A stretch of DNA of 64,000 nucleotides, from NCBI GenBank assembly GCA_023435025.1, contig JAEYSE010000093.1:10073-74072 (forward strand), in the 5' to 3' direction. This DNA is from Bacillota bacterium (GTDB lineage: Bacteria; Bacillota; Clostridia; Christensenellales; CAG-138). Numbering within the stretch: position 1 is the stretch's first letter; each line of letters starts with the position of its first letter. The position numbers and the translations under genes are program-made. Positions 17,760 through 28,474 of the stretch are shown piece after piece. The notes under the pieces were generated by a model that was given only the letters and a program-made list of their open reading frames with translations, searched no databases and was not told the origin of the DNA.

Positions 17760-18395
17760 TTATTCTAAAAACGTTTCATAAATTTCCGACATTTGCTTCA
17801 TGATCGAAAGGTTATGCAAAATGCCATGCTGCATTTCCAGCGAATGATCCGCGCCTTCAATGAAAACCAGTTCGCATGCTGCGTCGGCCCTGACCGCGCC
17901 AATGCAGGCTTCCGGGAATGTATCATCCGCAGTACCCATCACGGCTACGGATTTTGTTTGCAGCATGAAGGGAAGTGCGCGCTCCACCGGCGTTAAAAAC
18001 AAATGCCTGATGTCTGGGTGTTCAAGCAATGTGCCCACCATGCCCGCTAGTACCGTGCCCAGGCTTTTGCTGATCAAATAAAGCCTTTTATAGCCCTGCG
18101 CGCCCGCCGCTTGAAGTGTTTCAAGAAGTTCTTCGCAAAACGGCGCGATGTCTTCGGCCGTAAACGACTTTCCCGCCTTAAAAAACCCGTACTCCAGAGC
18201 CAGAACGTCAAACCTTTTGTCCCTTGCCGCCATACCGGCATAATAGAGCAGGGGCAGTTGCACGGTGTAGCCACGGCCGGGAAACAGCACGACAAGCGCC
18301 TCCGGCTTCTGCTGCTGCTGATAGAGTTCGTGGCTGACTTTGCACCCGAATATCGAATCCCGTTCCAGCGCTCTCGGTCTCATACCTTCCCCCAT
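17760..18395 (-). CDS. alpha/beta hydrolase
   Basis: 211 aa. VVLFPGRGY..., nucleophile-elbow-like LISKSLGT, and a C-terminal GADHS motif. Confidence 0.7.
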   Translation of the reverse strand: MGEGMRPRALERDSIFGCKVSHELYQQQQKPEALVVLFPGRGYTVQLPLLYYAGMAARDKRFDVLALEYGFFKAGKSFTAEDIAPFCEELLETLQAAGAQGYKRLYLISKSLGTVLAGMVGTLLEHPDIRHLFLTPVERALPFMLQTKSVAVMGTADDTFPEACIGAVRADAACELVFIEGADHSLEMQHGILHNLSIMKQMSEIYETFLE

Positions 18396-18437
18396 TCCTT
18401 TTTCTTACAATACCGCAAGTTCTGCTTTTGCGCCAGA

Positions 18438-18470
18438 AGGAAATAAAGCAGGCAGGCGTGTTCTGCCTGC
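18438..18470 (-). terminator. rho-independent terminator closing the tad operon
   Basis: On the minus strand, gcaggcag-aacacgc-ctgcctgc followed by TTTATTT. It starts about 20 nt after the stop at 18493. Confidence 0.75.
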
Positions 18471-18492
18471 CCAATGGATTTTTTGCAACTGT

Positions 18493-19044
18493 TTATTGTC
18501 GGCTGTTATCCCGCACAAAGGGCATCAACTTGTCCCGGGGTACGGAAAGCGGCTTGGAGGAAACAGGCTTTGTCCCTTCTTCCTGCGTGAAACGGCGGGA
18601 AAGCTGTTCGAATGCAAGAAAATGCTTCGGCTTTTCACTTTCTCGGATGTTCAGTTCCAATTGGCGCTGCGCTTCGCTGTGCTTTTCCCGTTCTTCCGCA
18701 AGTTCCGTTTGCAGCGCCGCCAGCTTGTGTAAGAGCGCGTCTGTCTCCTGGCGGTGACGCGCAACAAGTTTTTTGACAATGGGCCGGAGTTTTTCCTTCA
18801 ACGCTTCTTCATCCATAGTAGCCATGGCGGGTTGTACAGAGTTTTCCCGTGTGGAACTTAGCGTCTCTTTGAGCGCGCGGTTTTCTGCCTGAAGCATGCG
18901 CAGTTCCTCACGCAGCGCGTCCGTTTCCCTGTATAGAACAGTACGCAAATCCAGAAGTGTTTGCGCCTGCTCAGCGGCTATGGCAACAAGCTCAGATCTT
19001 CGGCAGCCGCTAAAATCCTTGCGCTCATCCGATTGCCTGACCAT
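18493..19044 (-). CDS. coiled-coil protein of unknown function, last gene of the tad operon
   Basis: GGGGAGG-7nt-ATG at 19044 (MVRQSDERKD...). Long heptad-like Glu/Leu/Arg-rich stretches (LREELRMLQAENRALKETL; LLHKLAALQTELAEEREKH). Confidence 0.5.
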   Translation of the reverse strand: MVRQSDERKDFSGCRRSELVAIAAEQAQTLLDLRTVLYRETDALREELRMLQAENRALKETLSSTRENSVQPAMATMDEEALKEKLRPIVKKLVARHRQETDALLHKLAALQTELAEEREKHSEAQRQLELNIRESEKPKHFLAFEQLSRRFTQEEGTKPVSSKPLSVPRDKLMPFVRDNSRQ

Positions 19045-19387
19045 TCTCCAGCCTCCCCACTTCCACAATCCGAACCTGCTCGGAGCAGCCAAGCTGCTTC
19101 CAGCGGTGTGCGGGCATCTCCAGTACGCTTGCGCAGCCATGGATATAAAAGCCCATACGTCCGGGCTCCATGGCTTCCTCCACGGAAAGCACGCGCCCCA
19201 GCTTATCCAAGTACACCACGTCGATTGGCTCGCGCATGAAATAGGTGTGAACCTGCGAACACGGATGCAGCAGCAGGCCTTCTTTGATATCCCGCTCGCC
19301 CATCAGCCCTTTGAGGCGATGGAAAAACCGATCCGCCACGCGGATACGCGCAATCGCCTTGCCGTCAGAATACAGAATCGCGTATTT
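19025..19387 (-). CDS. DUF192 domain protein
   Basis: MKYAILYSDGKAIARIRVADRFFHRLKGLMGE...LLLHPCSQVHTYFMREPIDVVYLD...VLEMPA is the typical DUF192/COG1430 pattern. Confidence 0.75.
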   Translation of the reverse strand, partial: KYAILYSDGKAIARIRVADRFFHRLKGLMGERDIKEGLLLHPCSQVHTYFMREPIDVVYLDKLGRVLSVEEAMEPGRMGFYIHGCASVLEMPAHRWKQLGCSEQVRIVEVGRLENGQAIG

Positions 19388-19445: not shown

Positions 19446-20360
19446 TTATTTAAACGTATCTATCACGCGTATGACGGTAGGGCCCAGCAATATGATGAAT
19501 ATTACAGGGAATATGAACCCGACCATCGGAAGCAGCATTTTTACGGACGCCTTCATGCCCTTTTCCTGCGCGTACTGCTTTCTAGAAAGCCGCAGCTGCT
19601 CCGCCTGGGTCTTCAACACTTGCTTAATGGGCGTACCCATCTGCTCGGACTGTACCACGGCGGAAGCCAAAGACTTTAGCTCCGCAACGTCATTGCGTTC
19701 GCCAAGCTCGGTCAATGCCACGCGGCGGGGTTTCCCCATCTGAATCTCCATGGCGGTAACTGTCATTTCCTCTTTGAGCGCGCCCGTGAATTTGTCCAAA
19801 GCACGCCGTAAAGCAAGATCAAAGCTCAACCCTGCGTCAATGCTGACGGTTAGAATATCGATCATATCCGGAAGCTGGTTTTTGATGGAACCTTGCCTTG
19901 AGCGTATCTGGAAGCGCATATAGTACACCGGTATCAAAAGCCCCAGCATCAGGGCTGCAAGCATCAGCAGCAACTTTACGTATGCTTCAAGCTCCGTGGA
20001 GCGCAGCAAAAGCGCCGTAGTTAAAAACAGCCCCAATGCGACCAGCACGCGTACCACTAAGAAACCGGAAACGCCGATATACATGCCCGCCATACGCAAC
20101 TGCCGTTCCATTTTACTGTTGCCGGCGCCCTCTTTTTTCGGCTTTATCAGGCGGTTGAACGCGTGGCGAAACTGCTTTAACAGCGGTACGATAAACCGTT
20201 CATGAAAGTCGGCGTTCAGTTCGTCAAGAAGCGCCTTATCCGTCTCCACAATGCGCTTGACACGCCGCTCTTTCGCACCCAATATCCTGCGGGGGCGGCT
20301 GAACAGCAGCAGGACAAATACAAACGCGGACATCGCGCTGGTGATGACAAGAAACTGCAT
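19446..20360 (-). CDS. tadC: Tad pilus inner-membrane platform protein (T2SS-F family)
   Basis: 304 aa. N-terminal TM segment plus a T2SSF-type domain (QLPDMIDILTVSIDAGLSFDLALRRA...) and C-terminal TM segments. Confidence 0.85.
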   Translation of the reverse strand: MQFLVITSAMSAFVFVLLLFSRPRRILGAKERRVKRIVETDKALLDELNADFHERFIVPLLKQFRHAFNRLIKPKKEGAGNSKMERQLRMAGMYIGVSGFLVVRVLVALGLFLTTALLLRSTELEAYVKLLLMLAALMLGLLIPVYYMRFQIRSRQGSIKNQLPDMIDILTVSIDAGLSFDLALRRALDKFTGALKEEMTVTAMEIQMGKPRRVALTELGERNDVAELKSLASAVVQSEQMGTPIKQVLKTQAEQLRLSRKQYAQEKGMKASVKMLLPMVGFIFPVIFIILLGPTVIRVIDTFK

Positions 20361-20381
20361 GCCATATTCCCCCTTCCGTCT

Positions 20382-21305
20382 CTAATATTTAACCGATACG
20401 ATCTTGCGTATGAGCATGTACCCGATCGTTTCCATCACCGCGGCGACGATGAGCATGATATGCCCTTCCTGCCGCTGAAACAAAAGTTCCATATAGTTGG
20501 GATTCAGAAGCAACAGCATCACGGCAAGGAACACCGGCATCAACCCGATCACCATGCCGGATATGCGGCCCGTGGAGGTGATGGTGCGTACCTCCTGCTT
20601 GACGCGGATACGATCGGTAACCGTCTGGGCGATATTGTCCAGTACCGCTGAAAGATTGCCGCCCACCTGCTGAGAAATGAGTATTGCCGTTACCATCAGT
20701 TTGACATCCGAGCTGGGCACGCGGCGCGAAAGGTTAAATAACGCCCGCTCCGTGGTGCTGCCCAACTGCAGCTCCCGCATGACGCGGCCAAACTCATTTG
20801 CGACTGGCTCTGCCATTTGATCCGCCACGGTCTGCATGCCCTGCTGGAATGTCAGGCCGCTTTTTAAACAGTTGCTGACGGTGGTAATGGCCTCGGGCAG
20901 CTGCTTTTCAAATGCAATCAGTCGTTTATGGCGGCTGTGCCGTACGTAAAACGGCGGCAACGCGAGGCCAATGCCGGTAAGCGTAACGGACACAAACATA
21001 TGTGCCCCCATCAGCGCGGAAACGGCGGGCGGGATAAAGGAGAGCACGACCCATATGAGCAAAAACTCCTCCGCCCGCATGGGAACGCCCGCGCTTGCAA
21101 GCTGATCCACCAATACGGTAGAGATGCGGATGGGCACCTTCTTTTCCGCACGCATGCGCTCACGGGAGAGAGGGGCTTTTTCGCCGGAAAGTTTTTCAAT
21201 ACGATCCCCGCTTCTGAGCGCATCCCGGTATACCCTGCGCAGGAGTATCACACAGAGCGTAAACATCAGGCCCGCCGCGCAGAGCGTCAAAAGTATGCGC
21301 TGCAT
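20382..21305 (-). CDS. tadB: Tad pilus inner-membrane platform protein (T2SS-F family)
   Basis: 307 aa. QLPEAITTVSNCLKSGLTFQQGMQTVADQ... is a T2SSF domain flanked by TM segments. Confidence 0.85.
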   Translation of the reverse strand: MQRILLTLCAAGLMFTLCVILLRRVYRDALRSGDRIEKLSGEKAPLSRERMRAEKKVPIRISTVLVDQLASAGVPMRAEEFLLIWVVLSFIPPAVSALMGAHMFVSVTLTGIGLALPPFYVRHSRHKRLIAFEKQLPEAITTVSNCLKSGLTFQQGMQTVADQMAEPVANEFGRVMRELQLGSTTERALFNLSRRVPSSDVKLMVTAILISQQVGGNLSAVLDNIAQTVTDRIRVKQEVRTITSTGRISGMVIGLMPVFLAVMLLLLNPNYMELLFQRQEGHIMLIVAAVMETIGYMLIRKIVSVKY

Positions 21306-21332
21306 GTCCTTCCCCTTCCCGTTGTTAAAAGC

Positions 21333-22667
21333 TTACTGAAACCATTCATCATACACCGGAACGCCGTTGCTGCGGATTTTGGATACGCATTTCGGGTATA
21401 CCCCGGTGCTTTTAAAACGCCCGTTAAAGCGCCCCTGCCCGTCCGTGGAGCCGTCGGTTTCAAACACAAATATGTCCTGCATGCTGACGATATCACCTTC
21501 CATGCCAGTGATCTCGGTAATGCTGACTATGCGGCGGGAACCGTCCCGCAGGCGGCTTTGCTGCACGATAATATCGAGTGCGGAGGCAATCTGGCTGCGG
21601 ATGGCATAAAGCGGCATATCTACCCCCGCCATCATCACCATGGTTTCGATACGGGAGATCATATCCCGCGGGGAGTTGGCATGGCCGGTGGTGAGTGAGC
21701 CATCGTGGCCGGTGTTCATGGCCTGGAGCATATCCAACGCCTCGCCAGAACGGACTTCGCCGACTATAATACGGTCCGGCCTCATGCGCAGCGTGTTTTT
21801 GACTAAATCCCGTATAGTGATTTCCCCCCGCCCCTCCAGGTTGGCCGGGCGGCTTTCAAGCGTAATGCAGTGCTGCTGCTTTAATTGCAGCTCCGCAGCG
21901 TCTTCTATGGTGACAATGCGCTGATCCGAAGGGATGTACCCGGAAAGCACGTTTAGAAGCGTCGTCTTGCCGCTGCCCGTTCCGCCTGCCACCATCATAT
22001 TGAGGTTGCCCTTGACGCAAGCCTCCAAGAAGCTGGCCATACGCGGGGTCAGCGAGCCGAAATTGATGAGATCGTGCACGGTAAATGGCGTCTTTGAAAA
22101 CTTGCGGATGGTGATGACCGGCCCCACAAGCGAAAGCGGGGGGATGATGATATTGACGCGCGAGCCGTCCTTTAAACGCGCGTCCACCATGGGGCTTGCT
22201 TCATCCACATGGCGGCCGATGGCGGAAACAATCTTTTCTACCACCTGCATCACGGCTTCCTCATCCCGGAAGCGGACGTCGGACAGCTTGATTTTGCCGC
22301 CCTGCTCTACAAATACCTGCTTGGGGCCATTGACCATGACTTCCGTAACGCCCGGGTCGTTTAAAAGCGCCTCAAGCGGCCCCAGGCCCATGACCTCGTT
22401 AAACAGCACCGTAGACAGCCGTGAACGTTCCACGCGCGTGATGGTATCCGAATATTCGGCCAGCACGTCGTCTATGACGCTTTGCACCTGCGCTGCATCC
22501 GGCTCTATGGCGCCTCCGCGCAGCCGGTCGATGACGGCAGTGCGTACGCGGTCAATGATGAGCAGGTACTGCTCCTGTTTGGTTTCCTCGGCCGTGGCGG
22601 TGACTGCCGAGCGCTCCTCGCGCGGGGCATCGTCGGTGGGCCTGTTGAGGCGGCTTTGTAAGCTCAC
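21333..22667 (-). CDS. tadA: CpaF/TadA secretion ATPase
   Basis: GTG start at 22667 (GGAGG-7nt-GTG) overlaps the tadZ stop as GTGA. Walker A GGTGSGKTT, Asp box, Walker B RIIVGEVR, His box TGHDGS. Confidence 0.9.
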   Translation of the reverse strand: MSLQSRLNRPTDDAPREERSAVTATAEETKQEQYLLIIDRVRTAVIDRLRGGAIEPDAAQVQSVIDDVLAEYSDTITRVERSRLSTVLFNEVMGLGPLEALLNDPGVTEVMVNGPKQVFVEQGGKIKLSDVRFRDEEAVMQVVEKIVSAIGRHVDEASPMVDARLKDGSRVNIIIPPLSLVGPVITIRKFSKTPFTVHDLINFGSLTPRMASFLEACVKGNLNMMVAGGTGSGKTTLLNVLSGYIPSDQRIVTIEDAAELQLKQQHCITLESRPANLEGRGEITIRDLVKNTLRMRPDRIIVGEVRSGEALDMLQAMNTGHDGSLTTGHANSPRDMISRIETMVMMAGVDMPLYAIRSQIASALDIIVQQSRLRDGSRRIVSITEITGMEGDIVSMQDIFVFETDGSTDGQGRFNGRFKSTGVYPKCVSKIRSNGVPVYDEWFQ

Positions 22668-23782
22668 CGGATCACCTCCGATGCAAGCTGGATAAGCTTC
22701 CTGCCCAGTGCGGTTCTTGGTTCCTCCAGTACCACCGGGCGGCCGATGCATTGGCACCTGTCGGCCGTTTTGTCGTCGCGCGGGAGAACATGCGCAGGCA
22801 TTACGCCCAACACCTTTTGTGCGTCCTTGATGGAAAGAAAAGCTTTATAATCCTTGTTGTACACATACCGGATCTTTTCCTGCAGCTGCAGCGAGGAAAG
22901 TACCGCCTGTGTGGTATGCGCCGCTTTGATGGAGCCGATATCCGGCTGCACCACCACAAGCACCTTGTTGGAATTTTCCATGGCGGTGATTGTGGTATCC
23001 GCGAAGTTACTTGGAAGATCGATGAATATGCAGTCAAAGAACGGACGCATGACGGAAAGCACGCTTTCCACATGCCGCGGCTCCACATATTCCCCGCTTT
23101 CGGGGGTGTTTGGGCCTGCAAGGACGCTCAGCCCGCTGTAATGCTGAACGGTAAAGCCGCGCAGCACATCCATACTGAGCGTACCGCGCTCCTGCGCAAG
23201 CTCTGCAATGGTATCCTTGGGTTGCATATCAAGGTAGAGCGCCACGTTCGCATACTCCAGGGAAAGATCGATGATGGCGGTCTTTCGCCCTGCTTTCGCG
23301 AGCGCCGCGGCCAGGTTGACGGCAAGCGTGGTCTTGCCTGTGCCGCCTTTGCCGGAATAGACGCTGATCACCTGCGTTTTTTGAATGGGCGCCGTTCCCG
23401 AAAGTCCTGCACGCACCTGCTCAAGCGCACCGGCACGGCGTACGGCATCTATGATGGCGTCTTCTCCATCCTCATAGGAAACGACCAGCCGTATGCCGGA
23501 TTTCAGCGCTTCGCGCGTAAGGGACATGGAGAGCTCCTGGGTTAAAAGCAGCAGTGCACAGCGGGGCACACTCTGGTAAATGCGCTGCGCAATATCAAGC
23601 GCGGCGGCGTTTTCATATAAAATAAGCGCGACGTCGGGCTGCAGGCCTTGGGCCTTCTGTACGCAGGAAGGCCCAAGATCGCCATAACCGACGATGACGA
23701 TATCCTCGGTGCTTAAAATCCCCTTGATGCGGTAGCGCGCATCCTTATCACTGCTGATGACAAATACCCGTAGCTGTTCCAT
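22664..23782 (-). CDS. tadZ: TadZ/CpaE-type protein (receiver-like domain fused to a MinD/ParA-like ATPase)
   Basis: N-terminal CheY-like fold (RVFVISSDKD...DVALILYE). Deviant Walker A SGKGGTGKTTLAVNLAAALA. Confidence 0.8.
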   Translation of the reverse strand: MEQLRVFVISSDKDARYRIKGILSTEDIVIVGYGDLGPSCVQKAQGLQPDVALILYENAAALDIAQRIYQSVPRCALLLLTQELSMSLTREALKSGIRLVVSYEDGEDAIIDAVRRAGALEQVRAGLSGTAPIQKTQVISVYSGKGGTGKTTLAVNLAAALAKAGRKTAIIDLSLEYANVALYLDMQPKDTIAELAQERGTLSMDVLRGFTVQHYSGLSVLAGPNTPESGEYVEPRHVESVLSVMRPFFDCIFIDLPSNFADTTITAMENSNKVLVVVQPDIGSIKAAHTTQAVLSSLQLQEKIRYVYNKDYKAFLSIKDAQKVLGVMPAHVLPRDDKTADRCQCIGRPVVLEEPRTALGRKLIQLASEVIR

Positions 23783-23792
23783 TTAAAATCTC

Positions 23793-24536
23793 CTACGCGA
23801 CATCCTTGTATTCGTACACCGGATGCACATACACCGGCGGGGAAACTTTATCCTGATCCTCCGAGCCACGCAGCAGGAGGTAGATTTGCTGGTTTTGGGT
23901 GGCAAAGTAGAGCTTCATGGCGTCTGAAGGCGTGAGTTCCACGGTAATGGACGAATACGTGTAGTTGTAATTGGCCTCGGTCTGAGTCTCCACCTGGGGC
24001 CGGGCGGCGACCTCCAATATCAGCACATTCTCAAGCAGCATCTCAACAGCGGGGATTTCCGTGATTGCGCCTGTTTCTTCATCCTCTTTTGTAGTCACGG
24101 TGGTGGCCATGATATCCACATAGTCGTTTTTATTCAGGTAAAAGCCAACGCCGGAAATCTCATCGCTGGCGAACGTGACGGCGCGCATGCCATCCTTGAC
24201 AACATAAGAAAGCTTGCCGCCCACCGCAGTATCGTCTGAAGCGATGCTGCCTGCTTCGATCTGCTGCCCGGCCGGAATGCGGTAGCGGCTCATTTTCCCC
24301 ACGACATCCTCCAGATTTGTGGCGGCGCCAGGACTAATCCATTCCACGGCGGTGGTGGTGAGCGTCACCATGTCCGACGTGATCCTTGCGTTTTCCTCTA
24401 TGGGGACAGTTGATACCACCACAGTGCCCGTATGTACGACGACAGTCGCCTTTTCTTCGAGCTGCGCGGCATATAAATATACCGCAACCCCGGTCAGCAG
24501 CGCTACGAACACGGCTATGATGTATATCTTCTTCAT
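23793..24536 (-). CDS. cpaB: Flp pilus assembly protein CpaB/RcpC (SAF-domain protein)
   Basis: AGGGGGA-ATG at 24536. MKKIYIIAVFVALLTGVAVYLY membrane anchor followed by a SAF-like beta-rich domain. Confidence 0.8.
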   Translation of the reverse strand: MKKIYIIAVFVALLTGVAVYLYAAQLEEKATVVVHTGTVVVSTVPIEENARITSDMVTLTTTAVEWISPGAATNLEDVVGKMSRYRIPAGQQIEAGSIASDDTAVGGKLSYVVKDGMRAVTFASDEISGVGFYLNKNDYVDIMATTVTTKEDEETGAITEIPAVEMLLENVLILEVAARPQVETQTEANYNYTYSSITVELTPSDAMKLYFATQNQQIYLLLRGSEDQDKVSPPVYVHPVYEYKDVA

Positions 24537-24608
24537 GCATCCCCCTGCGGCTGGAAAAGCCGTTACTATCAACTTCAGTTCATAGATAGGTCTTTTGATG
24601 TGGTTCCG

Positions 24609-25001
24609 CTAAACCTTCATTGTGGTCTTAGCGGATAATAAGAACGTGTCCCCTGGCGTAAATATGACCGCCATTGGCGTAAGGGTAGGGACTGCCTTGG
24701 TAACAGCAACGGAAATATCATTCCCGGATTTATTGAGCGTGACGGTAAGCGTACCCGGGCCAACCACCATGCCCTGCACAAGCGAGGTTACGTCCGCTGT
24801 CAGCGTTGCGTCCTCCGCATGGACGATTGCGTAGCGCGCGCCCTCCCGGCTGCCGTTTTCCACACTCATCTGGTTGTAAAAGTACCAGCCTATTTCCATG
24901 ATGCCCATGAGCAGCAACAAAAGAAGCGGGAGGGTGATGGCCATTTCCACCAACGCCTGCCCACGTTCACGACGTGCCTTTTTATGCTCAACTGCCTGCA
25001 T
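24609..25001 (-). CDS. tadE: TadE-family pseudopilin
   Basis: GGAGGGA-ATG. RGQALVEMAITLPLLLLLLMGIMEIGWYFY...SREGARYA matches the TadE-like N-terminal domain. Confidence 0.8.
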   Translation of the reverse strand: MQAVEHKKARRERGQALVEMAITLPLLLLLLMGIMEIGWYFYNQMSVENGSREGARYAIVHAEDATLTADVTSLVQGMVVGPGTLTVTLNKSGNDISVAVTKAVPTLTPMAVIFTPGDTFLLSAKTTMKV

Positions 25002-25017
25002 GGATTTCCCTCCATCC

Positions 25018-25061
25018 GCATAAAGAGAACTACTGCCGCCCGCACGCTGTGCGGGCGGCAG
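25018..25061 (-). terminator. strong hairpin (attenuator/terminator) directly after the flp pilin gene
   Basis: 13-bp perfect stem ctgccgcccgcac/gtgcgggcggcag with a 3-nt loop. On the minus strand it is followed by tagTTcTcTTTaT. It lies between flp and tadE. Confidence 0.55.
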
Positions 25062-25081
25062 CTATTTGGCATTGTCGCAAA

Positions 25082-25946: not shown

Positions 25947-25995
25947 ATTGGGCCTCCTTAGTTGGTTTAGCCTAAGAAGCTTTTCTTTGTTTTTT

Positions 25996-26038
25996 AAGCA
26001 AAGAAAAGCCTCTATTCGGGTCTCCGAATAGCGGCCTC
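25996..26038 (-). terminator. intrinsic terminator (expression platform of riboswitch A)
   Basis: On the minus strand, gaggccgCTATTCGG-agac-CCGAATAGaggc followed by TTTTCTTTGCTT. The segment ccgaatgaagc just after the aptamer is nearly complementary to the left arm. Confidence 0.6.
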
Positions 26039-26104
26039 TTTGTTTTTGCGCTGCATCCGTTTTTAGAGAAGGATGGCAAAGACGCAAACAAAAGCGCGGC
26101 TTCA

Positions 26105-26192
26105 TTCGGCAGCTGGCTGTCATGGGCGATTTTATTCGCCTTTAGACCCTGTAGCTTTGCGTAACAGCCTTTCGACTGGCTTGCCATTATCG
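26105..26192 (-). promoter_or_regulatory. c-di-GMP-I (GEMM-I) riboswitch aptamer, copy A, upstream of tadV-flp
   Basis: RNA sense is aaUGGCAAGccaguc-GAAA-ggcuguUACGCAAAGCUACAGGGUCUAAAGGcga-auaaaa-ucgCCCAUGACAGCCAGCUGCC. It has the GGCAA...GNRA hairpin...ACGCAAAGC core of GEMM-I. Both hairpin stems covary with copies B and C. Confidence 0.8.
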
Positions 26193-26507
26193 GGAAGATG
26201 ACTTTTGTAGTACTCTTCGTTTTGTCCCGGCTCCAGCCGGGGGCTCACGATTTGCCGCTTTTTAGCGGCGAGGCTTACCTGTGTACGTAAAGCCCTTCTA
26301 CCCGGCGCAAAAAGGCGAATGCCGGCGCCTTGCATCGGTGCGGGTATTCTTTGCGTCCGCCCGTGTGGGAGGTCGGGGGAGCGCTTGCCCGCAAAACTGA
26401 AGTATCCCTTTGATGCGCGTTTCATCCGCGCACCCGTATCACCTCCTCTCTAAAAATCGCGGCACTTATGATTAAGTTGGGCCGTCGTCAGCCCTTCCAT
26501 GGGAACT

Positions 26508-26544
26508 GAAAACAAAAATGGCAACCGCTTGTTCGCAGTTGCCA
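26508..26544 (-). terminator. intrinsic terminator (expression platform of riboswitch B)
   Basis: On the minus strand, uggcaacugc-gaacaa-gcgguugcca (10 bp, one G-U that is valid only on this strand) followed by TTTTTGTTTT. The left arm GGCAACUG is the exact complement of the aptamer 3' end CAGUUGCC. Confidence 0.7.
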
Positions 26545-26593
26545 AAACTGTTCCATAAATTCCGGGGCAATATACTGCCACGGCCATGAAAAA

Positions 26594-26675
26594 GCGGCAA
26601 CTGGCTGCCTTAGGCGTATTCGCCTTTAGGCCCTTTAGCTTTGCGTCGCTGCCTTTCGGCAGGTTTGCTATTAAT
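26594..26675 (-). promoter_or_regulatory. c-di-GMP-I (GEMM-I) riboswitch aptamer, copy B (A at position 20)
   Basis: RNA sense is aaUAGCAAAccugcc-GAAA-ggcagcgACGCAAAGCUAAAGGGCCUAAAGGcg-aaua-cgCCUAAGGCAGCCAGUUGCC. It has a GAAA tetraloop, a CCUAAG receptor-like motif and the ACGCAAAGC core. Confidence 0.8.
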
Positions 26676-26780
26676 ACACTCTTTTTGCTGGCCGCCGGTA
26701 ACATTTTAAGCAAATGACCGGCGGATTAAGCAGAATCTTTTTTTCTCTTTCTCTTTTATCGTTACAAACAGCACCAAACT

Positions 26781-28184
26781 TTAGCGGATCAAACGAATTT
26801 TTTCTACGTCTGGTCCAAAAACTTCGGGCGGTATATCCGGTGGGCGCGCCTCAAGGTTGGCTGGTATCCCAATGAGCCGATACGCAATCAAGCTGCCAAA
26901 GAACCGAGTATTGTTTCCACTCAATTCTACACTTCCCTTGGGCGCATATACCACACCGGATACCCTTGTATCCCCCGTTACCATGTAGATATTGCCGTTT
27001 TTTGAGTATACGCAGACGCTATCCGTCTGGCGCATCTGCATGCCGTTTCCGTTGAAGGTGATGTTCCCCCCGGCAAATACATTGCCCGTACCGGTAAAAC
27101 TGTTGCCCATGTTGAGCTTGCCTTCGGCAAAAATTGTCCCGTCATGCGTGACGGAGCCGCCGGTGAAATTGATATCCTCACCGGAATAAAGCGTACCTGT
27201 TCCGACATAGCTGTTGCCAAACGTAATGGTCCCCGTCACATATAGGTTACCATTCAGCGTGCATACCGGCGCTTCGCCCGTAATCTTGAGATCTCCGTTC
27301 ACATATACGTTGCCGTTCAGCACTGCGCGGCCCATCTCCAGGTTGCCGTCGACATAAAGCGTATTGCCACCCGTCAGCACGGCTTTTCCTGCAATTTTCA
27401 AATTCCCCATGCAGTGCATGGTATTGTTGATTGCGGCCTCCGTGCAGTTGATTGTGGTACTGCCCGTCATCACCGTATAGCTAGAGAACGTCTGATACGC
27501 GTTCCACGGGAGGTTGCCCGAGCCAAGGTTGGTATATGTTGCAGGTCTCTGGGGCAGCGTTGGCTGCTTCGGGCGCGTTTGGGCTTCCACACCAGAAAAG
27601 TCCGGCATATCGATAAACGGCGCTCCGGGCACCTGCGAACCCGCTGTCATGGTAGAGGTATTGATATATACCTCGTCACACGCTTCGGCTGCGCCCGTAA
27701 TTCTACCCCAGCCGGGGCTTGCGTGCAGAGAGCCATTGGAATGAATGTTGCCTTGGATATTGAAGTTGCCGCCCATCTTGAATGTATAATCCGGATCGCC
27801 GCTGAAGAGTAGGTAATCGTAGGGCCACAGGCCGTTTTCCTTATACTTTTCCGCGCTGGCACCGGCAGATACGGCATTCGTTACCTTGCCCATTACGGTG
27901 GAAAAGCCCGCCTGTACCTCTTCCCTGCCCACCGCAGTAATGACCATATTGGAGTTTTCAAAGGAGATGATGACCTCATCTTTGGAAAAGCCGTTCTGTT
28001 CAATGTAGTATTCGGCTTCCCGCTTCGCCGCGACCGTATCGGGCAGCATAGAGGCCCCCGCCATGACGGCCGCGTCAAGCGCCGTTTGCAATCTCGAGTT
28101 TTGCAGGTACAGTACACTGCCATCCACGGCCAAAGCGCCAAACGCCATCAGGACCGAAAGCGCGATCGCCACCACAATCAGCAC
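26781..28184 (-). CDS. TadG-like pilus-associated protein (Tad N-terminal domain plus beta-helix-like Gly/Asn repeats)
   Basis: GTG start 10 nt after GAAGGAG. The N-terminus VLIVVAIALSVLMAFGALAVDGSVLYLQNSRLQTALDAAVMAGA matches the TadE/G-like domain. The C-terminal half holds GN-x-x-[VI]-x-G repeats ending ...GVVYAPKGSVELSGNN. An in-frame TGA lies 2 codons upstream (see findings). Confidence 0.8.
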   Translation of the reverse strand: MLIVVAIALSVLMAFGALAVDGSVLYLQNSRLQTALDAAVMAGASMLPDTVAAKREAEYYIEQNGFSKDEVIISFENSNMVITAVGREEVQAGFSTVMGKVTNAVSAGASAEKYKENGLWPYDYLLFSGDPDYTFKMGGNFNIQGNIHSNGSLHASPGWGRITGAAEACDEVYINTSTMTAGSQVPGAPFIDMPDFSGVEAQTRPKQPTLPQRPATYTNLGSGNLPWNAYQTFSSYTVMTGSTTINCTEAAINNTMHCMGNLKIAGKAVLTGGNTLYVDGNLEMGRAVLNGNVYVNGDLKITGEAPVCTLNGNLYVTGTITFGNSYVGTGTLYSGEDINFTGGSVTHDGTIFAEGKLNMGNSFTGTGNVFAGGNITFNGNGMQMRQTDSVCVYSKNGNIYMVTGDTRVSGVVYAPKGSVELSGNNTRFFGSLIAYRLIGIPANLEARPPDIPPEVFGPDVEKIRLIR

Positions 28185-28249
28185 AGGCGTTCAGCTCCTT
28201 CCCCGCGGCAGCATCCGCCGCTCAAGCCAGGCACGTTCCATTCACGCCA

Positions 28250-28288
28250 ACGAACAAAAGAAAGCAGCCAACCCGAAGGGTCAGCTGC
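28250..28288 (-). terminator. intrinsic terminator (expression platform of riboswitch C)
   Basis: On the minus strand, gcagcugaccc-uuc-ggguuggcugc (11 bp with two G-U pairs valid only on this strand) followed by TTTCTTTTGTT. Confidence 0.7.
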
Positions 28289-28332
28289 CAAACATCCAAC
28301 ACATGCCTAAACAGGCATATTGCATGATTGAT

Positions 28333-28416
28333 GCGGCAACTGGCTGCCTTGGGTCAATATGACCGGTAGGCCCTTTAGCTTTGCGTCACCGGCTTTCACC
28401 GGCTTTGCCTTTATCG
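28333..28416 (-). promoter_or_regulatory. c-di-GMP-I (GEMM-I) riboswitch aptamer, copy C, upstream of the tadG-like gene
   Basis: RNA sense is aaAGGCAAAgccggu-GAAA-gccggugACGCAAAGCUAAAGGGCCUACCGGuca-uau-ugaCCCAAGGCAGCCAGUUGCC. Same core as copies A and B, with compensatory stem changes. Confidence 0.8.
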
Positions 28417-28445
28417 CTTAACAGATTGCTCCATTAAGTAATCAC

Positions 28446-28474
28446 AGTATAGTACATGCATATATGGTTGTCAA
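28446..28474 (-). promoter_or_regulatory. sigma-A-type promoter of the tad operon
   Basis: On the minus strand, TTGACA-17 nt (accatatatgcatgtac)-TATACT. It lies about 30 nt upstream of riboswitch C. Confidence 0.6.

Follow-up and report, generated by a model that had tools for sequence, protein, structure and literature searches.

The 64,000-nucleotide (nt) stretch analysed here, referred to as the window, comes from a Bacillota genome of the Clostridia (Christensenellales; GenBank contig JAEYSE010000093.1) and holds, on its minus strand, a locus for a Tad/Flp pilus whose first genes are preceded by three riboswitches of class I for cyclic di-GMP (c-di-GMP; the GEMM-I class). We name them, in the direction of transcription, switches C, B and A: C lies before a tadG-like gene; B and A follow this gene as a doublet and precede the prepilin peptidase gene tadV and the pilin gene flp. 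The best explanation of the locus, which we hold to be probable, is that three transcription-acting GEMM-I riboswitches in a 1 + 2 organisation, wired as OFF switches, gate the pilus genes in series. Each switch combines an aptamer with a spacer hairpin and an intrinsic terminator of its own, and acts on transcription; rising c-di-GMP would switch the Tad genes off.

The full 64-kb window was scanned with the Rfam covariance models (gathering score of RF01051: 35 bits), and only three matches were recovered, all to RF01051 (c-di-GMP-I), each lying on the minus strand and spanning the whole model (positions 1-87 of 87), with E-values of 1e-12 to 1e-13:

28332..28419 (read 28419-28332), minus strand: aptamer C, RF01051 at 77.6 bits (E 1.5e-13); c-di-GMP-I with a G20/A47/C92 pocket.
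26593..26679 (read 26679-26593), minus strand: aptamer B, RF01051 at 77.7 bits; c-di-GMP-I fold with an A at the G20 position (A-A-C pocket, GEMM-Ib-like).
26105..26195 (read 26195-26105), minus strand: aptamer A, RF01051 at 73.0 bits; c-di-GMP-I with a G-A-C pocket.

A previous sequence-only reading had proposed c-di-GMP-I aptamers at these three places, and the family check on the minus strand upholds it (73-78 bits against the cut-off of 35), with coordinates agreeing to within 1-4 nt. Its shared GGCAA[AG] element fails for copy B, which reads AGCAAA (A at model position 11). Both members of the doublet are enclosed by an outer helix: around aptamer B 26684-26677 pairs with 26596-26589, and around aptamer A the segment ACAAAAG (26208-26202) pairs with CUUUUGU (26094-26088), a helix kept in every slot-A copy (we use 'slot' for the equivalent position in other loci). 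The U-rich GCUUUUGUUU directly after aptamer A, considered as a terminator tail, was rejected as such, being the strand of this conserved outer helix that pairs with ACAAAAG.

The fold is also supported by covariation. Relatives were collected as loci retrieved with a profile of the TadG-like homologues (80 loci, from a species-representative genome collection), and 33 aptamers from the window and these relatives were tested against 500 shuffles and slid controls. On this sample the Rfam-type structure leaves 96% of cells paired and 10 of the 21 pairs have changed on both sides, which bears out the compensatory changes reported earlier for the hairpins; the observed covariation score was reached by none of the 500 shuffles, and the slid controls pair at only 18-46%. 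The GAAA tetraloop on the first hairpin (GNRA type) is invariant (33/33). Judged by family membership, the three elements are genuine class-I c-di-GMP (GEMM-I) riboswitches.

The arrangement recurs among relatives. In nine of the ten closest loci (L001-L007, L009 and L010) Rfam recovers the full 1 + 2 set, with a single aptamer ahead of the tadG-like gene and a pair behind it; the contig of the tenth (L008) breaks off after the first aptamer. These loci come from uncultured Bacillota (Clostridia, Oscillospiraceae, Christensenellales), with TadG identities from 81% down to 39%, and TadG-like homologues were detected down to ~30% identity. Further loci were searched with a covariance model built from the 33 aptamers, which added L019, L022 and L032 with a doublet each and L059 with one copy. 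In the three additional doublet loci the doublet stands alone directly before tadV-flp and the tadG-like gene lies downstream (in L019 the order is doublet, tadV, three flp genes, tadE, tadG-like gene). The three flp genes of L019 (5736-6428) are in tandem and nearly identical; the window has one. Since the distant relatives carry the doublet only, before tadV, the comparison of sequences makes the tandem doublet before tadV-flp the recurring unit, and the natural units 1 + 2, not 3. On the same comparison, what sets off the window's clade is that the tadG-like gene lies upstream of the doublet and has a promoter and a riboswitch to itself.

Whether the locus is read as one transcript or two bears directly on serial gating, and two features are needed here:

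28446..28474 (read 28474-28446), minus strand: promoter-like site TTGACA-17-TATACT before aptamer C, with 11/12 consensus matches.
26692..26724, minus strand: hairpin after the stop codon of the tadG-like gene (from folding), without a U-run and followed by an A-run that supplies the 5' side of the outer helix around aptamer B.

The promoter before copy C, already pointed out in the sequence-only reading, is sound (11 of 12 matches), and a near-consensus promoter lies 15-33 nt before aptamer C in 10/10 loci. Between it and tadV, the promoter scan found no sigma-70-like promoter in the window or in L001-L003, and read-through from the tadG-like gene into B would be the simplest expectation in the window. 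The alternative that fares best, to which we give somewhat less than an even chance, divides the locus into two transcription units (promoter-C-tadG-like, and a second promoter followed by B-A-tadV-flp), in other words into an ordinary single riboswitch and an ordinary doublet. Several observations speak for it and weigh against serial gating. A perfect TTGACA-17-TATAAT stands 23-24 nt before aptamer B in L006, L007 and L010, and L004, L005 and L009 have promoter candidates at this place with off-consensus spacing; in the three loci with the doublet alone, the tadG-like gene lies downstream. In some relatives, to judge from these sites, the doublet clearly starts a unit of its own. We infer, moreover, the co-transcription of B and A with the tadG-like gene, and a non-consensus promoter is possible in the window. 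Set against the division are the empty interval from the C promoter to tadV in the window and L001-L003, and a tadG-like gene without a terminator of its own (its hairpin lacks a U-run), so that read-through into B would be expected even with a weak second promoter; L001-L003 share with the window the A-run and the A-rich 5' side of the outer helix around aptamer B, and in them a hairpin of different sequence occupies the same place. The presence of the perfect promoter before B in three relatives, and its absence from the window and L001-L003, indicate that promoters were gained or lost within the clade. The earlier description of the locus as one operon was put too firmly: no promoter-like site separates C from tadV in the window, but L006, L007 and L010 have perfect promoters before B and the distant relatives carry the doublet only.

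If the serial reading holds, transcription begun at the C promoter would meet three checkpoints on its way to the pilin gene. The TadG-like gene would then lie behind one of these gates and the peptidase and pilin genes behind all three, and the genes beyond flp would also have to pass a hairpin at 25062-25032. Serial gating would multiply repression and sharpen the response. In a simple product model of OFF switches, going from one switch to three narrows the responsive range from 81-fold to 37-fold and, with 90% of transcripts terminated at each switch, raises maximal repression from 10x to 1000x; the midpoint is lower with three switches, and the upper end of the response is extended if B binds weakly.

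The claim that each aptamer is followed by its own stem plus U-run terminator proved correct. Folding was compared with 200 shuffles for each terminator, of which 0/200 fold as well (z = -4.9 to -5.4), and the strand-specific G-U pairs described for these terminators are present:

28253..28289, minus strand: terminator of switch C; 12-base-pair (bp) stem 28289-28263 and U-run UUCUUUUGUU at 28262-28253; -19.6 kcal/mol, z -4.9.
26509..26544, minus strand: terminator of switch B; 10-bp stem 26544-26519 and U-run UUUUUGUUUU at 26518-26509; -18.1 kcal/mol, z -5.4.
26000..26038, minus strand: terminator of switch A; stem 26038-26008 and U-run UUUUCUUU at 26007-26000; -21.0 kcal/mol, z -5.0.

We also observed that the U-run of terminator A can pair with an A-rich segment downstream (CUUUUCUUUG...CAAAGAAAAG; window 25980-26008, minus strand), giving a second hairpin that overlaps the terminator tail and is kept in L001-L003.

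All three leaders contain an expression platform that competes with the aptamer, that is, a terminator whose left arm is complementary to the aptamer 3' strand. Folding each leader only to the end of this left arm, we obtained the following predicted anti-terminators as minimum free energy structures:

28282..28343, minus strand: predicted anti-terminator of switch C; aptamer 3' strand CCAGUUGCCGCAUC (28343-28330) with GAUGUUUGGCAGCUG (28296-28282), enclosing the spacer hairpin.
26536..26603, minus strand: predicted anti-terminator of switch B; CAGUUGCCGC (26603-26594) with the left arm GGCAACUG (26543-26536), enclosing the spacer hairpin.
26024..26109, minus strand: predicted anti-terminator of switch A; tail CCGAAUG (26109-26103, including C92/C93) with the left arm UAUUCGG (26030-26024), extended by GCUUUUGUUUGCG with CGCAAAAACAAAG.

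At this length the anti-terminator is more stable than the intact aptamer, by 8.8 kcal/mol in C, 7.5 in B and 3.0 in A. The duplex of tail and left arm reaches -20.0 kcal/mol in switch C (shuffled: -11.2) and -19.3 kcal/mol in switch B (shuffled: -9.4; z -3.7), and across loci the duplexes of slots B and C lie at -15 to -21 kcal/mol against ~-9 for shuffled arms, in nearly all loci. In copy B, as stated in the sequence-only reading, CAGUUGCC (26603-26596) and the left arm GGCAACUG (26543-26536) are exactly complementary, and the two strands change together: the compensatory pair CCGGUUGC/GCAACCGG replaces CAGUUGCC/GGCAACUG in switch B of L007 and L010; over L006, L007, L008 and L010 the window-type pair gives way to CCGGUUGC/GCAACCGG or CGGUUGCC/GGCGACCG; and an aptamer strand with CGGUUGCC in place of CAGUUGCC goes together with a left arm of GCAACCGG, GGCGACCG or GGCAGCCG in place of GGCAACUG or GGCAGCUG. 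In slot A, only the C92-bearing tail and the outer helix take part in the competition, not the Rfam helices, and CCGAAUG/CAUUCGG is found in all slot-A copies that carry a terminator.

The aptamer 3' strand contributes C92, a ligand contact, as well as the base of the second helix or P1. In the ligand-free state, this strand would pair with the left arm as an anti-terminator and RNA polymerase would read through; with ligand, it would be locked in the aptamer, the terminator would form and transcription would stop. A closed, ligand-bound aptamer would therefore free the left arm for the terminator, which makes an OFF switch, and on the strength of the folding we consider OFF polarity fairly likely for the three switches. 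Class I c-di-GMP riboswitches of Clostridioides difficile are likewise transcriptional OFF switches (PMC11477304). In the published ON design the aptamer's own 3' strand serves as the terminator left arm (PMC4759541; PMC1950547), and the three platforms described here differ from it in that the aptamer 3' strand is not the left arm.

Four points count against this polarity. Firstly, c-di-GMP usually favours adhesion and pili, and OFF control of Tad genes runs counter to this. Secondly, the full-length leaders have the terminator in their lowest-energy structure, with or without an enforced aptamer; since adding the right arm brings the terminator into that structure, the decision must be kinetic, as in classical transcriptional riboswitches. 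Thirdly, the core of the anti-terminator of switch A comprises 7 bp that are invariant and do not covary, and its duplex (z -0.4 to -1.7) is not clearly above shuffles, slot A being statistically weaker than B and C because this core is invariant. Lastly, polarity is deduced solely from thermodynamic folding and complementarity. The same three riboswitches could then work with the opposite sign, c-di-GMP preventing termination and turning the Tad pilus genes ON, which we rate as unlikely. Such a sign would agree with the established role of c-di-GMP in adhesion and with the diguanylate cyclase gene found two genes upstream; ON switches are numerous among GEMM-I representatives and include the characterised triple tandem Bc3-5 (PMC1950547; PMC4759541), and Sherlock et al. 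predicted ON for the Desulfobacca series (PMC9481103). What decides for us is the wiring: an ON-type terminator overlapping the aptamer 3' strand was looked for in the three leaders and none was found, and complementarity between this strand and the left arm is seen in all three slots and extends to relatives, where compensatory changes accompany it. This wiring can favour the terminator only when the aptamer is closed, and the clostridial class I switches studied so far are OFF (PMC11477304).

The three copies are less uniform in their ligand pockets than in their wiring. Pocket positions are given in Vc2 numbering, mapped from the published sequence and an alignment by eye. Copy B reads AUAGCAAAC, and the nucleotide that immediately precedes the paired GC on its 5' side (model position 11) is an A, at the equivalent of G20, which in Vc2 reads one guanine of the ligand (PMC6140456). 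At G20/A47/C92, copies C and A are G-A-C and copy B is A-A-C (a mapping made partly by eye). Slot C is G-A-C in all relatives; A20 occupies slot B in the window, L001, L002, L003, L005 and L009; and in L006, L007 and L010 slot A has a G at the A47 position (ACGCGAAGC). In 12 of 13 loci the two pockets of the doublet before tadV differ from each other; the loci are related, so that these are not 12 independent events. Three configurations occur, namely A20 then G20, G20 then A20, and G-A-C then G-G-C; in the outgroup, L019 and L022 have G20 then A20 and L032 has A20 then G20, and two canonical pockets are seen in the doublet of L004 only. We note that the slot-A copy of L006 matches RF03167, the orphan variant family c-di-GMP-I-GGC, for which no published ligand was found in the literature searched. 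The slot-A G47 aptamers (L006 8537-8625; L007 2212-2297; L010 8557-8643) give this variant a defined context, as the second member of a doublet before tadV.

The A20 substitution is the signature of the GEMM-Ib aptamers, which respond to cyclic AMP-GMP (c-AMP-GMP or cGAMP; PMC6140456; PMC9481103, Desulfobacca cluster 3). In Vc2, G20A binds c-di-GMP at 53 nM and cGAMP at 120 nM (wild type: pM and 10 uM, respectively), and the A20 aptamer Cbe 1-2 of Clostridium beijerinckii is bispecific, binding c-di-GMP at 30 nM and better than cGAMP (PMC6140456). By analogy with these cases, the affinity of copy B for c-di-GMP should be far below that of C and A, and this copy may also bind 3'3'-cGAMP; we therefore take it for a weaker or bispecific sensor and not for an established cGAMP-specific one. 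The earlier view that all three copies belong to the same ligand class is accordingly upheld at the level of the family (all three are RF01051) and becomes uncertain for copy B, given the A at its G20 contact.

One could go further and read the pair as a two-ligand gate, with copy B sensing 3'3'-cGAMP or another dinucleotide and C and A sensing c-di-GMP, the pilus genes being on only when both are low. The GEMM-Ib signature and the unlike pockets of 12 of the 13 doublets, in three configurations, point this way. However, A20 alone gives bispecific binding and the clostridial Cbe 1-2 prefers c-di-GMP (PMC6140456), the recurrence among related loci does not amount to 12 independent events, and a cGAMP synthase is not apparent, since the GGDEF protein next to the locus has the canonical GHxxGD and not the Hypr serine. 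A Hypr (cGAMP-making) GGDEF next door was for this reason (canonical GHLTGD...GGDEF motifs) rejected as a candidate. We thus think it improbable that the doublet before tadV-flp is a two-input NOR gate, with 3'3'-cGAMP or the ligand of the GGC variant as its possible second signal; were it so, this would argue for a second dinucleotide signal in the control of surface behaviour in Clostridia. That one or more copies are decaying duplicates without a regulatory role is very hard to credit: slot A departs from the consensus in several places (GGCAAG, UUACGC, G47 in some relatives) and the spacer between B and A resembles shuffled platform modules, but all three copies score far over the Rfam threshold, their helices covary, and aptamer, terminator and tail-arm complementarity are kept slot by slot across lineages whose TadG is ~40% identical.

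The gene context was confirmed with Pfam and with independent gene calls, which secures the earlier assignment of the riboswitches to Tad/Flp genes (tadG-like and tadV-flp). In the order of transcription it reads:

31531-29642, minus strand: dCache-PAS-GGDEF cyclase gene, two genes upstream, with canonical GHLTGD and GGDEF motifs (Pfam).
29475-28504, minus strand: MsrAB gene (Pfam).
28184-26781, minus strand: TadG-like gene, 467 amino acids, with an N-terminal Tad/TadE-G-like segment and DUF7305 (Pfam PF13400, PF23981), a possible adhesin.
26196..26508, minus strand: spacer between B and A, 313 nt, non-coding, with conserved blocks (locus comparison).
25946-25293, minus strand: tadV/cpaA prepilin peptidase gene (Pfam Peptidase_A24).
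25270-25082, minus strand: flp pilin gene (Pfam Flp_Fap).
25032..25062, minus strand: very strong terminator-like hairpin directly after flp and before tadE, 14 pairs of which 11 are G-C (sequence scan).
19446..25001, minus strand: tadE, rcpC/cpaB, tadZ-like ATPase, cpaF/tadA, tadB and tadC (Pfam TadE, RcpC, AAA_31/ParA, T2SSE, T2SSF x2).

The Tad/Flp (type IVc) gene set is complete in this one cluster (Flp, A24 peptidase, TadE, RcpC/CpaB, TadZ-like, CpaF/TadA and two TadB/C platform proteins), every Pfam match to it exceeding its cut-off, and the same Tad gene calls are present in L081. The hairpin at 25032-25062 is likely an attenuator that sets a high ratio of pilin to machinery. Downstream of tadC, two open reading frames of 215 and 211 amino acids (17760-19140, minus strand) have no significant Pfam match and may be lineage-specific Tad components. 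The dCache-PAS-GGDEF protein is a possible local source of c-di-GMP for the riboswitches.

No gene was found in the 835-nt gap that holds copies B and A (independent gene call on the identical public contig). The spacer between the two aptamers has blocks that are kept in L001-L005 and L009, namely GGAGGUGAUA, a hairpin with a CUCCCAC loop (26371-26360), and UGCAAGGC-hairpin-GCCGGGUA. A small open reading frame behind the Shine-Dalgarno (SD)-like GGAGGUGAUA was discarded, as frames are not conserved between loci and the independent gene caller finds none; a known RNA family or a degenerate fourth aptamer was likewise discarded (no Rfam match at E<=5). The RNAalifold consensus fold of the spacer is weak (-11.6 kcal/mol, on a poor alignment), and the spacer could represent another structured RNA, or what is left of an expression platform. 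The CTCCCACACGGG hairpin module (with the CUCCCAC loop) lies upstream of aptamer A in the window (26360-26371) and in L001-L003; in L004 (8808-8819) and L009 (8926-8937) it lies downstream of aptamer A, inside its platform, and these positions suggest that platform modules have been shuffled. The CCUCC loop of this module is complementary to the SD-like GGAGG located ~75 nt upstream in the window's spacer.

We see the value of the locus in that it offers a clean, conserved natural case of serial riboswitch control in a pilus locus of uncultured Clostridia. It leads to two predictions: that c-di-GMP represses the Tad pilus genes, a sign opposite to that of the C. difficile type IV pilus switch, and that the pilin gene is gated more tightly than the TadG-like gene. 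In addition, the unlike-pocket pairs (A20/G20 and G-A-C/G-G-C) form a small natural series of aptamers for GEMM-I ligand selectivity, the orphan GGC variant included.

The layout had been called unusual, which overstates its novelty, as tandem, triple, GEMM-cpaA and mixed G20/A20 cases have all been published. No other riboswitch class occurs in tandem as often as c-di-GMP-I, with 347 doublets and 12 triplets on record (PMC9481103), and the published tandem c-di-GMP switches behave more digitally (PMC9481103; PMC4759541). Frequent tandem copies, and GEMM elements upstream of cpaA and other pilus genes, were reported along with the discovery of the motif in 2007 (PMC1950547). In that work (Weinberg et al.), GEMM upstream of a Cpa/Tad prepilin peptidase gene appears among the recurrent associations, as it does here, yet cpaA is only a gene-family name in a table and no Tad-locus arrangement is given. 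Apart from this cpaA entry, the literature searched held nothing specific on GEMM-I with clostridial Tad loci, nor did it hold a description of the conserved layout of one copy, a gene and two copies in such loci, of its predicted OFF sign or of the recurrent pairing of unlike pockets.

The closest parallel to the number of copies is Bc3-5 of Bacillus thuringiensis (Zhou et al. 2016, PMC4759541), in which three complete class-I c-di-GMP riboswitches, each with its own terminator, likewise stand in series in one gene cluster, and which proved stricter and more digital in its control than one or two copies. Bc3-5 differs in being contiguous within one 5' untranslated region and in its ON design, with the aptamer 3' strand forming part of the terminator; the window has a 1.4-kb gene between the first copy and the second and third, a predicted OFF-type wiring and one A20 pocket. 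Desulfobacca acetoxidans has a series of G20 and A20 aptamers with open reading frames in between (Sherlock et al. 2022, PMC9481103): there too, several GEMM-I aptamers with their own terminators form clusters split by open reading frames, and one of them is an A20 variant with improved c-AMP-GMP binding. That series is, however, mixed with adenosylcobalamin (AdoCbl) riboswitches and predicted to be ON, whereas the window has GEMM-I only, in Clostridia, before Tad genes, and is predicted to be OFF.

With respect to sign, the nearest relative is Cd1 in the flgB leader of C. difficile (PMC11477304), a clostridial GEMM-I aptamer followed by an intrinsic terminator, in which ligand leads to premature termination (OFF). 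The class I switches of C. difficile are single and control flagella and other genes, and its type IV pilus genes are under a class II ON switch, opposite in sign to what is predicted here. Copy B, in turn, resembles the GEMM-Ib (c-AMP-GMP) switches of Geobacter and Cbe 1-2 (PMC6140456) in having G20 replaced by A in an otherwise standard GEMM-I fold; the Geobacter switches differ in being ON and in controlling exoelectrogenesis genes, and in the window no cGAMP synthase was seen nearby. Set beside these systems, the layout of one copy, a gene and two copies, the OFF sign and the pairing of unlike pockets are, as far as the predictions go, variations within a known kind of control and do not amount to a new type of regulator.

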